Assembly (NCBI GenBank): GCA_015062535.1
Contig: SUUK01000002.1
Span: forward strand, 31,946-95,945
Origin: Alphaproteobacteria bacterium
GTDB lineage: Bacteria; Pseudomonadota; Alphaproteobacteria; RF32; CAG-239
Direction: 5' to 3'
DNA: 64,000 nucleotides
Each line of letters begins with the position of its first letter. The stretch's first letter is position 1. The translations under genes were made by a program, and so were the position numbers. Below, one piece after another: positions 20,407-22,820 of the stretch. The notes below the pieces were generated by a model. The model searched no databases, was not told where the DNA came from, and saw only the letters and a program-made list of their open reading frames with translations.

Positions 20407-20691
20407 ATGATAAATAATCGATTAAAAATGGCTTTGGCAGCTATGGGAGTTAGTTATTGTGATGAAAAAGTGCTTACAACAATTATAGAGGTTCTTGAAA
20501 AAGAGTATGGAATAATATTCTATAAACCGGAAGTTGCTCTATCTGACATTAAAGATGTTATAAAACAGATGAGCGAAAGTGCGAACGATGTTAAAATTGT
20601 ATTTGAACCAATAGCTAAAAAACAACCAAAACGCAAATGGGTTGTTCCTAAAAAAATAGGAAAACCTCAAAAGAGAAAAGGGCGGTTCTAG
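20407..20691 (+). CDS. Hypothetical small protein with strongly basic C-tail
   Basis: 94 aa. TTGACA-17-TATGTT promoter-like sequence at 20343-20371. Tail KKQPKRKWVVPKKIGKPQKRKGRF. No clear RBS. Confidence 0.4.
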   Translation: MINNRLKMALAAMGVSYCDEKVLTTIIEVLEKEYGIIFYKPEVALSDIKDVIKQMSESANDVKIVFEPIAKKQPKRKWVVPKKIGKPQKRKGRF

Positions 20692-22820
20692 AAAGAATCG
20701 CCTTTTTTTGTTGGGTCGTTGATTATTCCAATAAACGCTCCATTATTTATCATAAAGATAAAAGGTCTATCAACGATAAATGGGGCTGCGTTTCTTCCCA
20801 TAAAAGCACCTGTAGCAAAATCTAAAACAAATGATTGTAAGGAAACAGCGGCAGTACCTTTTTCGTTTACTATGATTTTGTTCTTTTGTTTAGCAGAGGT
20901 GATGTGAATATTTTCTTTTGTGCAAACATTAGTTGTAGCGGAATTTGATAAGATATTATTTAGCTCTGATTGCCCCGGTTTAAATAAATTTTCTAAACCT
21001 AGAGAAGTTAATATTTTTCTTAAGTTAATATCTTTAGATAATTCGAAAACAGGTATCATTAAACTGATTTCATGTTTTTCAAATTTTAAGGAACTAAAAG
21101 TTTCAGGGGTTAGTTTTTCTATAATTTCATCAAGAGATATAGTTTGATTTTGACTTTCATCAACTTCTTCTGCAAAAGAATCATTAATTAATGAATTACT
21201 TCTTATTGGGGTATCTTTTGATGATGGGAGAATTATGTAAAAATTATCGCCACTTTTATATGGTAGTGCTAATACTCTAAAATTTGGGCCTTGAGCGATG
21301 TATACTTCTCTTTTATCTGTCATCATTTCGGCATCTACTTTACCGGTTGGGGTATAGAAAGGGTGGGTTGTAAGGTGTTCTCCAAATTTGTCTTTCCACA
21401 CTGATGCGAAAGACAATGTTGAAGAAAGCTCTAATGTACAATTATTTTTGGAGAAAGATGTTTTTATATCATATTCTTTTAGAGTATCTTTAAAGTTAGG
21501 AGATAAGTGTTTTTTATTCAAAATTTTTAGGTTGTTTTTAAATTTTAGAGCAGTGGAGTGATTTTTTAAAATCTCTTTACTTTTAGCGTTAATTTCATCT
21601 AGATTTTGACTACCTAGAAGTTGTTTAAGACGGGTTAATGTATCTCCAGTTGCACCATTTGCCATTAAACTTAATGCTTGATATAGGTTGTGTGTAGAGA
21701 TTATAGTGTTTTCATTTGGCGCTTCTTTGGATATAGTTTGTAATAATGGGATAGATAGAGCATTAATATTTTTGTCACCAATAGAATCTACTTTTTGTTC
21801 TACAAAATTTGCATTTGTTAGAATGTTTTTTATCATTCCAAAAGAGCCAAAATCTGGTGAAACTACATTTAATGGTAATATAATACAAACGAAAATCATA
21901 GGAAGATATATAGGTGCATAAGTTTTTATTTTTTTATAAAGATAGATAGTATTTTTTTTGTAAAGATAGATAGCAACTAATGCGAGCATTAATATATATA
22001 ATAATAAAAATATAATTGTTATAATATGTATATCGGCTACATAGGAAAAAAATAGTATTACTGTGATAGCAAATATTATATGTATAAAGTATGTTATACA
22101 AAAAAATAATAATGATACAAAAATGCCTATAATCACCAATATGTTGAGAATGTCTATTACTACTATTTTCACCGGTATGTTGAGTATATAAAATGCACCA
22201 ACAAAAATAGAGATTACTAAAATTAAGAGAAGTATCCCTAAAAATTTTTTTAAGCGATGGATGCGTTTGTTTTTCTCTAAATATGTTTTAAGCTTTTCAG
22301 TATTAAATAAATGATAGCAGAATGAAAATAGAAAAACAAATGCTATATACATTGGGTGTATAGAAATTAAATAGTATGGAAAGAGAGGTTGTATAATAAA
22401 GAGCAAAACTGTGAAATCGTTATTTATTATACTTATAATAGCAAGTGGAATAAAATATATACATATTAATGTTCTAAATAGTTTGAGATTAAATATTTTT
22501 AATATGTTTTTTAATGAGATGTCTATGTTTAAAGCATGTAATCGTCGAACAATTAAACCAGAAAGAGGGATAAAAGCAAAGCTCATATAACACCAAAATA
22601 AAGCTATTCCAAAAGGAATTTTTGTGGTTATAAAGTTGCCATTAACGATAAAAGCTTGTTCTTCGTATGTTGTGCAAAAACTTATTAATGAGATAAAGAG
22701 AATAATAAGGCTGATATTGATAAAGTTTTTATATTCTTCTGCTATTTCTTTTGAGTTAAAATCAAAAGAACGTTTCCAAGAATTGAGGTATAAATTTAGA
22801 GAAGCTTTTATGTTGTTCAT
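20688..22820 (-). CDS. Polytopic membrane (DUF805-like) domain fused to a serpin domain
   Basis: 710 aa. The N-terminal ~330 aa have about 8-9 TM helices, with a DUF805-like FIPLSGLIVRRLHALN motif. The C-terminal ~370 aa are a serpin (NTIISTHNLYQALSLMANGATGDTLTRL). Hinge NEKGTAAVS. FIVDRPFIFMI fits the classic serpin C-terminal signature. Confidence 0.8.
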   Translation of the reverse strand: MNNIKASLNLYLNSWKRSFDFNSKEIAEEYKNFINISLIILFISLISFCTTYEEQAFIVNGNFITTKIPFGIALFWCYMSFAFIPLSGLIVRRLHALNIDISLKNILKIFNLKLFRTLICIYFIPLAIISIINNDFTVLLFIIQPLFPYYLISIHPMYIAFVFLFSFCYHLFNTEKLKTYLEKNKRIHRLKKFLGILLLILVISIFVGAFYILNIPVKIVVIDILNILVIIGIFVSLLFFCITYFIHIIFAITVILFFSYVADIHIITIIFLLLYILMLALVAIYLYKKNTIYLYKKIKTYAPIYLPMIFVCIILPLNVVSPDFGSFGMIKNILTNANFVEQKVDSIGDKNINALSIPLLQTISKEAPNENTIISTHNLYQALSLMANGATGDTLTRLKQLLGSQNLDEINAKSKEILKNHSTALKFKNNLKILNKKHLSPNFKDTLKEYDIKTSFSKNNCTLELSSTLSFASVWKDKFGEHLTTHPFYTPTGKVDAEMMTDKREVYIAQGPNFRVLALPYKSGDNFYIILPSSKDTPIRSNSLINDSFAEEVDESQNQTISLDEIIEKLTPETFSSLKFEKHEISLMIPVFELSKDINLRKILTSLGLENLFKPGQSELNNILSNSATTNVCTKENIHITSAKQKNKIIVNEKGTAAVSLQSFVLDFATGAFMGRNAAPFIVDRPFIFMINNGAFIGIINDPTKKGDSF

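Follow-up and report, generated by a model that had tools for sequence, protein, structure and literature searches.

Is the serpin encoded by a gene of an alphaproteobacterium truly part of a polytopic membrane protein, and if so, what could it do there? The gene lies in a stretch of 64,000 nucleotides (contig SUUK01000002.1 of assembly GCA_015062535.1, positions 31,946 to 95,945; hereafter, the window means the whole of this stretch). It is a single unbroken open reading frame (ORF) at 20688..22820 on the minus strand, with an ATG start and a stop codon at 20688-20690, and its 710 amino acids (aa) run from a DUF805-like segment through a region with multiple transmembrane (TM) helices into a C-terminal serpin. 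The original prediction described a complete serpin fused to a DUF805-like domain of 8 to 9 TM helices and assumed a classical suicide-substrate inhibitor at the cell envelope. As set out below, the fusion is conserved and very rare, and its serpin domain is missing one of the helices of the serpin core.

A conserved fusion of a serpin with a membrane domain

An identical 710-aa protein is called on 23 contigs from many samples, with contigs of up to hundreds of kilobases. A protein search returned 14 relatives at 45-100% identity, of which 13 are full-length (676-710 aa) and one is a 402-aa partial sequence. When one genome per GTDB species was scanned, the fusion was present at 38-52% identity in six metagenome-assembled genomes (MAGs), all labeled as uncultured Alphaproteobacteria; MAG isolate names point to water-buffalo colon for one fusion carrier and to sheep rectum for a weaker serpin match, the remaining names being mere sample codes. 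Full-length orthologues (38-91% identity) come from at least six species-level MAGs and form ~17 protein clusters. Because the same product was called 23 times on independently assembled contigs and the frame is open in every orthologue down to 38% identity, we regard it as virtually certain that the fusion is real. The alternative of two genes joined by a frameshift or misassembly, for which we found no supporting evidence and which also has to contend with invariant residues in the linker and last helix of the whole family, has next to no chance of being correct. An AGGA Shine-Dalgarno-like motif (22829..22832, minus strand), read from the sequence 8 nucleotides upstream of the ATG at 22820, supports the annotated start. 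The gene is AT-rich, at 23-33% G+C along its length with the minimum over the membrane part.

The C-terminal part of the protein (residues 346-710; 20691..21785, minus strand) matches the Pfam family Serpin (PF00079) with E=1.7e-40 and 139.8 bits against a cut-off of 27, as originally expected, and PF00079 is found in all orthologues. This domain also matches solved serpins in the PDB. The stretch FIVDRPFIFMI (s1C/s4B; residues 681-691; 20748..20780, minus strand), singled out early on as a serpin signature, fits a PROSITE-type regular expression, and it is invariant in the family. An AlphaFold2 (AF2) model of the serpin domain alone, built on a 35-sequence multiple sequence alignment (MSA), reached a predicted local distance difference test score (pLDDT) of 80 and a predicted template modeling score (pTM) of 0.78, and Foldseek matched this model to many serpins with E~1e-23 and a TM-score of ~0.68. 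By hidden Markov model, signature, and predicted fold, the fusion is a member of the serpin superfamily. Its identity to any other serpin is ~20-29%.

The serpin domain lacks helix F

In an alignment with 25 conventional serpins, the whole fusion family is without ~35-40 residues between s1A and s3A, which correspond to helix F and the loop between helix F and s3A. The missing block of ~40 columns reads DF...IN.WV...T.G.I.... in the conventional proteins. The full serpin core, with helix F lying over sheet A, is thus not found in the fusion family, and the description of a complete serpin has to be given up. In the window protein, alignments with conventional, sister-MAG, and PDB serpins place the junction at residues 455-462 (SFSKNNCT; 21435..21458, minus strand), including an invariant cysteine, C461, at the start of s3A. 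When HMMER was run against Serpin-ZX, one and the same query segment was matched both to helix F and to s3A; therefore, only one of these two elements exists. The AF2 model agrees, with domain residues 126-129 (s1A) running straight into residues 137-148 (s3A) and no helix in between, and the same junction is present in the most distant genome-derived members.

An uncultured Rhodospirillales MAG encodes two signal-peptide serpins in tandem (L009:7872-8993 and L009:9012-10199, plus strand; 373 and 395 aa, with 74% identity to each other), and these are without helix F as well. A relative of 431 aa in a further MAG (L007), 51% identical, has helix F; the L007 and L009 serpins share 24-26% identity with the fusion family. 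Because the L007 relative keeps helix F while the L009 pair and the fusion family do not, helix F was lost at least twice independently in gut alphaproteobacterial serpins that share the motif RPFIFMINNG.FIG. We found no description of natural helix-F-less serpins in the open-access literature. Helix F is regarded as an active and possibly essential element of inhibition. In the view summarized in PMC5322333, it has to move as the loop inserts and contributes to locking the complex, and its complete deletion in PAI-1 is stated there to have abolished inhibition, such that a pure substrate was left. With helix F absent, and given this outcome in PAI-1, the classical suicide-inhibitor mechanism that was taken for granted at first cannot be assumed.

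Two further features of the serpin domain emerged from the alignments. A family-specific acidic insert, variable in sequence and 25-30 aa long across the family, follows the IILP strand in the s3B-hG loop (residues 533-563; 21132..21224, minus strand), and low pLDDT values fall on domain residues 209-230 of the model. The s4B-s5B hairpin is short, which is common to the fusion and the serpins of sister MAGs.

Hinge, reactive-center loop, and invariant cysteines

The hinge and reactive-center loop (RCL) occupy residues 653-685 (EKGTAAVSLQSFVLDFA followed by TGAFMGRNAAPFIVDR; 20766..20864, minus strand) according to the RCL table and alignment. The hinge pattern G-T-x-A-[VI]-S-x-Q is conserved in the family and reads E653-K-G-T-A-A-V-S-L-Q in the window protein. 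The consensus of inhibitory serpins has Glu at P17, Gly at P15, Thr or Ser at P14, and small, uncharged residues other than Pro at P12-P9; of these positions, P17, P15, P14 (Thr), P12 (Ala), and P10 (Ser) fit. Of the small residues first claimed for P14 to P9, those at the even, inward-facing positions P14, P12, and P10 stand, and those at P11 (Val) and P9 (Leu) do not.

The P1 residue, originally held to be unassignable by eye, can be predicted by the canonical count of 17 residues from P17 Glu653, which gives P1 = A669 and P1' = T670 (20811-20816). The column of A669 also aligns with the P1 Arg of the fish glia-derived nexin P0029. At P2-P2', 14 of the 18 members tabulated have [YF]-A|T-G, and the adjoining RCL positions vary. 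The P' side is 8-17 residues long over these members. In the window protein it comprises 14 residues, compared to 8 in P0029 and 8 in alpha-1-antitrypsin; the excess is thus 6 residues rather than the ~3 estimated at first. From hinge to signature, other family members are 3-5 residues longer than alpha-1-antitrypsin.

In the AF2 model, P15-P4 (the region of window residues 655-666) form a strand beside s5A, such that the uncleaved chain is modeled in a loop-inserted, latent-like state. The best Foldseek matches are all cleaved or latent structures, namely, cleaved Serpin 42Da, latent antithrombin, latent tengpin, and latent conserpin. The model shows that the loop sequence is compatible with insertion into sheet A, and the state chosen by AF2 says nothing reliable about the native state of the protein. 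The loop-inserted model may reflect a modeling bias, or it may hint that the relaxed state is strongly favored without helix F.

The serpin part contains no cysteines other than C461 and C633, and neither of them varies in any member. C633 (20922..20924, minus strand) lies in a loop five residues before s5A and is the proposed partner of C461, with which it would form a disulfide.

The membrane domain opens with a divergent DUF805 module

The N-terminal ~320 aa contain about nine hydrophobic segments, in keeping with the helix count of the original prediction. A Pfam scan of the whole protein reported Serpin only, and an NCBIfam scan of the whole protein gave no match; DUF805 was seen once the N-terminus was scanned alone. 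Residues 1-147 matched Pfam DUF805 (PF05656) with 15.4 bits and E=0.027, below the cut-off of 25.7 bits, and a DUF805 match at E<=1 was obtained for 2 of 11 family members (best E=0.0024). We then searched 1.84 billion representative proteins exhaustively, with no word filter, using a profile built from 11 N-terminal sequences. Only 14 proteins were found at E<=1e-3. Nine are fusion-family members or fragments, including the new variants P0017, P0019, P0020, and P0021 and the 107-aa protein P0023, which has no Pfam match and an N-terminus resembling that of the fusion member P0019. The other five are small proteins that independently match Pfam DUF805 with E values from 2e-8 to 2e-34.

Comparison of the first ~135 residues of the family with these DUF805 proteins by hhalign gave a probability of 98.2% and E=4.4e-14 over 99 columns, with the mild circularity that the comparison set was drawn from the matches of the profile search. 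The alignment pairs YLNSWKRSFDF..EEYKNF with Y.n.WKk.FDy.Gr..R.EyW.F and GLIVRRLHALN with l.VRRLHD. Based on these comparisons, the first ~105 aa are a divergent DUF805 module, a distant homologue rather than a threshold-passing member; the DUF805 likeness first proposed thus holds at the profile level and falls short at the Pfam threshold. By the same search, the membrane domain is very rare, being confined within 1.84 billion proteins to this family and, weakly, to ordinary DUF805 proteins.

The module (residues 1-110; 22491..22820, minus strand) begins with an amphipathic charged N-terminus that contains the first of these motifs. TM1 follows, then an acidic loop predicted to lie outside, TM2 with the sequence FWCYM..P..G, and finally the RRLH motif. 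Its core has the invariant residues S14, W15, K16, S18, F19, E29, F33, F75, C77, Y78, A82, P85, G88, R92, and R93, with W15 replaced by Phe in the most distant members. DUF805 proteins typically have three helices, examples being the small inner-membrane proteins YhaH and YhaI of Escherichia coli. What the fusion shares with them is an N-terminal W-K-x-x-F-D...E-Y/F-W/K-x-F motif, two helices, and then RRLH(D). However, its module has lost the Arg and the Trp that are conserved in the first motif, as well as D..SGWW after RRLH. DUF805 proteins proper are also ~110-160 aa long and stand alone or in tandem repeats, whereas the module of the fusion opens a protein of 582-710 aa with 5-9 helices in which up to seven more helices and the serpin follow. 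A search of the open-access literature yielded nothing on the function of DUF805.

Beyond this module, the membrane part changes quickly. We compared the window with a strain whose flanking DNA is 98% identical (L014:3001-5076). Between these strains, the serpin domain (residues 346-710) has 99.2% aa identity with 2 synonymous and 3 nonsynonymous differences, and the DUF805-like part (residues 1-175) has ~90% aa identity (92% for residues 1-100 and 88% for 101-175) with 5 synonymous and 18 nonsynonymous differences. The middle TM block (residues 176-300) drops to 64% aa identity with several indels and 21 synonymous and 48 nonsynonymous differences. Because synonymous divergence is raised here as well, recombination or a mutable, AT-rich, low-complexity tract is suggested rather than positive selection alone. 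Between subclades the middle block is barely alignable, and it is missing from P0020. As judged from these alignments, the membrane part evolves in two modes, with a conserved DUF805-like core and a fast, dispensable middle block, and the latter seems to behave as a spacer or anchor and not as a catalytic or transport domain.

Predicted topology

To place the serpin relative to the membrane, we listed hydrophobic stretches free of charges, together with the intervening loops, for 11 members. The window protein starts with the N-terminus (residues 1-31; 5 K/R), followed by TM1 (32-52), the acidic loop (53-67; 1 K/R, 2 D/E), TM2 (68-91), and the RRLH loop (92-116; 6 K/R). Residues 111-192 (22245..22490, minus strand) then cover, by hydropathy and charge, TM3 (117-134), a Pro-rich hydrophobic stretch of 39 aa (136-174) read as an outside segment plus TM4, and a K/R-rich loop (175-192; 8 K/R). 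The variable block (residues 193-287; 21960..22244, minus strand), delimited by alignment, P0020, and the strain comparison, would hold about four TM helices. Residues 288-345 (21786..21959, minus strand) comprise a second K-rich loop (KKNTIYLYKKIK; 288-299) with 5 K/R and no acidic residue, the last helix (300-322), predicted to run from inside to outside, and, from residue 323 onward, the linker to helix A of the serpin and the serpin itself. The last helix goes with a conserved LPLN..GSxG motif, in which L315, P316, N318, G325, S326, and G328 are invariant.

Charges are distributed unevenly over these loops, with ~24 K/R in the alternate, presumably cytoplasmic loops versus 2-3 in the remaining ones. 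The four positive loops recur in every member; in the other members analyzed, 3-6 K/R were counted in the loop that precedes the last helix. In P0020 (582 aa), where the middle block is absent, the two K-rich loops are merged and five helices are left; since an even number of helices is absent, the orientation of the last helix would be preserved. According to the positive-inside rule, the N-terminus would thus be inside and the serpin outside. Sec-type signal peptides are present on the standalone relatives in L007, L009 (two copies), and L010. The fusion belongs with them to a serpin clade of gut Alphaproteobacteria, and apart from the fusion this clade consists of ordinary secreted proteins with signal peptides. 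Genes for AsmA, LptF/G, OprB, and an outer membrane protein (OMP) beta-barrel are among the neighbors in the window and related loci and point to a diderm cell. The charge pattern, the signal peptides of the standalone relatives, and the invariant cysteine pair together make it likely that the serpin faces the periplasm. The envelope location proposed from the outset is thereby given a probable side of the membrane, by inference from these three observations.

A proposed tethered protease trap and its alternatives

What could a serpin do in this position? The best explanation overall, to which we give an even chance, is that the serpin faces the periplasm and works as a protease trap while tethered to the inner membrane. 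In this scenario, the last helix would cross the inner membrane from inside to outside and hold the serpin at the periplasmic inner-membrane surface of a diderm cell. Because the middle block is hypervariable and dispensable, the membrane part could serve mainly as an anchor. Such a protein may have originated by fusion of a DUF805-type gene to a signal-peptide-bearing serpin gene, whose signal peptide became the last helix. The reactive loop would lure a serine protease with a preference for cleaving behind small or aromatic residues; P1 Ala with Tyr or Phe at P2 would suit elastase-like enzymes or, shifted by one residue, chymotrypsin-like enzymes. Once cut, the loop would insert into sheet A and leave the protease covalently trapped at the membrane, and the Cys461-Cys633 pair could act as a periplasmic disulfide clasp at the base of s3A and s5A in place of helix F. 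Envelope proteins would in this way be protected from proteases that reach the periplasm, as has been proposed for ecotin and for inner-membrane-anchored alpha-2-macroglobulin. These two precedents lend the suggestion of protection against host or periplasmic proteases, made in the original prediction, support by analogy. Inhibition is plausible, and the chance that the domain is a genuine covalent inhibitor seems to us slightly short of even.

Several observations weigh against this scenario. Helix F, reported as needed for inhibition by PAI-1, is absent from the fusion family, and the hinge has bulky residues at P11 (Val/Ile) and P9 (Leu/Tyr/Ile/Phe). The positions that we take to be equivalent to the shutter (N378, S467, and Q645, by our own mapping to alpha-1-antitrypsin numbering) are off consensus. 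The periplasmic topology is derived from charge and hydropathy, and an AF2 model of the full-length protein (13-sequence MSA) was poor, with a pLDDT of 45, and gave no usable information on topology or the packing of domains. In none of the loci examined is a protease gene linked to the fusion, and an intact outer membrane would be expected to keep host proteases from the periplasm. Lastly, a mere anchor is an assumption; the core motifs of the DUF805 module are invariant across the family.

The alternative that survives best is that the serpin domain is not an inhibitor. Instead, it could be a decoy or bait that is simply cleaved, a sensor of proteases that transmits its change in conformation to the DUF805 module, or a binding or chaperone-like module. 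The PAI-1 precedent of a pure substrate and the off-consensus shutter positions speak in its favor, as do the invariant DUF805 core motifs, which suggest more than passive anchoring, and the independent loss of helix F in L009, which suggests that these bacteria do not need the classical mechanism. The loop-inserted state that AF2 gives for the intact chain would also be an inactive one, although the conformation picked by AF2 is not evidence on the native state. A sensor is disfavored by the cytoplasmic parts, which are short loops with no output domain. Non-inhibitory serpins usually lose the hinge consensus. Here both the hinge (P15-P8) and P2-P2' are strongly conserved across 38-91% identity, as expected if insertion and recognition matter, and because this conservation extends over such deep divergence, a non-inhibitory role is hard to reconcile with it. 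We therefore view such a role as possible, though doubtful.

A different question is which protease a tethered trap would meet. Instead of warding off host enzymes, the protein could inhibit or regulate a serine protease that the bacterium itself has in its envelope, close to the inner membrane, since the serpin would lie at the periplasmic face of the inner membrane, behind the outer membrane. The center of P1 Ala and P1' Thr-Gly is kept across bacteria from different hosts (human and ruminants), serpins of Clostridium thermocellum have been proposed to target the cell's own subtilisin, and the window itself encodes a Peptidase_S41 protein (53989-55542). However, serpins are not known to inhibit proteases with a Ser-Lys dyad of the S41 type, no protease gene is adjacent to the fusion in the loci examined, and the neighborhood is not conserved in distant members. 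Characterized gut bacterial serpins, moreover, inhibit host elastase-type proteases (PMC8233489). A target within the bacterium's own envelope is thus unlikely on present evidence.

It is more improbable still that the fusion is a precursor in which the last helix serves as a signal peptide within the chain. Cleavage there would split the protein into a soluble serpin, periplasmic or secreted, and a DUF805-type membrane protein. The sequence KKIK, the hydrophobic stretch after it, and LPLNVVS do resemble the signal peptides of standalone relatives (e.g., MLKKIVVVLSLLVAFNANA), and one member has a plausible cleavage site at I-C-A|T. However, no conserved small-x-small (-3/-1) site was seen by eye, the best candidate site in the window protein has Pro at +1 (VVS|P), and the invariant LP[LF]N..GSxG is unlike the c-region of a signal peptide.

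Returning to the tethered trap, a bolder version can be formulated in which natural serpins without helix F still insert their loop upon cleavage by a protease, the disulfide acts as a latch, and this switch is coupled to the DUF805 module, making the protein a membrane-embedded protease sensor or trap. We consider it quite unlikely; if true, it would provide the first functional context for DUF805.

Genomic context and other features of the window

In the window and in close relatives, the gene order is AsmA and a divergent RluC-like gene, the fusion, and then a small convergent ORF, RarA, a DEAD-domain protein, and YebC, such that housekeeping genes flank the fusion. Distant members are instead neighbored by Hsp33, ThyX, an epimerase, an OMP, or RuvAB with a thioesterase and LptF/G. 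As the neighbors differ between close and distant members, the fusion gene is a self-contained unit without a conserved partner; no conserved operon was found in the loci examined. A promoter and terminator scan was uninformative, with 22 promoter-like sites against 17.7 expected and no terminator.

The small convergent ORF (20407-20691, plus strand) overlaps the stop of the serpin gene by 4 nucleotides. It encodes 94 aa (87 aa in public assemblies) with a very basic C-terminal tail, ..IGKPQKRKGRF, and no Pfam match, and a product in L001 shares 42% identity and an identical tail. The DEAD-domain protein (18097-18864, minus strand; 255 aa) is the N-terminal half of a DEAD-box helicase, with the RecA-like DEAD domain and a Lys-rich tail but no helicase C-terminal domain; the 255-aa product is also called in L012 and L014, and the truncation is therefore conserved.

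Further from the fusion, the Peptidase_S41 protein (plus strand; 517 aa, C-terminal processing protease domain, E=3.7e-13) lies 31 kb away and unlinked, and it is the sole serine protease among ten large ORFs scanned. A protein of 393 aa at 46014-47195 (plus strand) consists nearly entirely of ankyrin repeats (Ank_2, E=7e-82); such proteins are unusual in free-living bacteria and typical of host-associated ones. An inactive transglutaminase fused to a 7-TM domain (PF14400 plus PF14402) is encoded at 11857-13401 (plus strand) and also at L015:233-1768, where its neighbors are RimB-like and ATP-grasp proteins; the window, too, seems to have this cluster (ORFs at 11307-15011). The proteins at 48725-51568 (plus strand; 947 aa) and 52804-53973 (plus strand; 389 aa) have no Pfam match at E<=1e-5.

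Comparison with known systems and implications

One comparison is with secreted gut and oral serpins, such as the siropins of Eubacterium, the Bifidobacterium longum serpin, and miropin of Tannerella (groups T/U, Spence et al. 2021, PMC8233489), which share the fold, the host niche, an insertion-compatible hinge, and, as predicted, an exported location with the fusion. Those proteins are soluble or of lipoprotein type and have the full helix set, whereas the fusion has a polytopic domain of ~340 aa, no helix F, a cysteine pair, an insert, and a longer P' side. Another comparison is with the standalone serpins of sister MAGs (L007, L009 [two copies], and L010), with which the fusion has in common [DN]RPFIFMINNG.FIG, the short s4B-s5B hairpin, and a long P' side; these have ordinary signal peptides but neither a membrane domain nor the cysteine pair. 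Tengpin, with an N-terminal region of 56 aa, and the C. thermocellum serpins, which are cellulosomal and of which Clotm-3 is a predicted membrane protein, likewise have an extra N-terminus or a predicted membrane association, but none has been described as a DUF805 or polytopic fusion or as lacking helix F. Spence et al. class some prokaryotic serpins as "membrane anchored" from N-terminal signal peptides (PMC8233489). We found no description of a polytopic or DUF805-serpin fusion in the open-access literature.

Among unrelated inhibitors, ecotin acts in the periplasm, where it shields Salmonella against pancreatin and pancreatic elastase. The fusion would be like it in being a periplasmic serine-protease inhibitor that shields an enteric bacterium, in the case of ecotin from pancreatic elastase and neutrophil proteases, but ecotin is a soluble, homodimeric, reversible inhibitor of unrelated fold and is not membrane-bound. 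Bacterial alpha-2-macroglobulin (ECAM/YfhM) is periplasmic and inner-membrane-anchored, but it differs in fold and chemistry (a thioester as opposed to an acyl-enzyme) and is anchored through N-terminal domains rather than a polytopic domain.

The physiological role of prokaryotic serpins has been described as enigmatic (PMC8233489). In a diderm gut commensal, attachment to the inner membrane would narrow where a serpin can act and would suggest an envelope protection similar to that by ecotin and alpha-2-macroglobulin. The function is inferred and the organisms are uncultured, but the architecture and the loss of helix F would surprise a serpin specialist. For DUF805, a widespread membrane domain with no assigned function, the serpin is the first partner in a fusion to be informative. 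In addition, a natural helix-F-less family with an inhibitory-type hinge constitutes a test of the role of helix F itself: either inhibition works without it, perhaps with the help of a clasp formed by a disulfide, or the serpin domain has come to serve another purpose.

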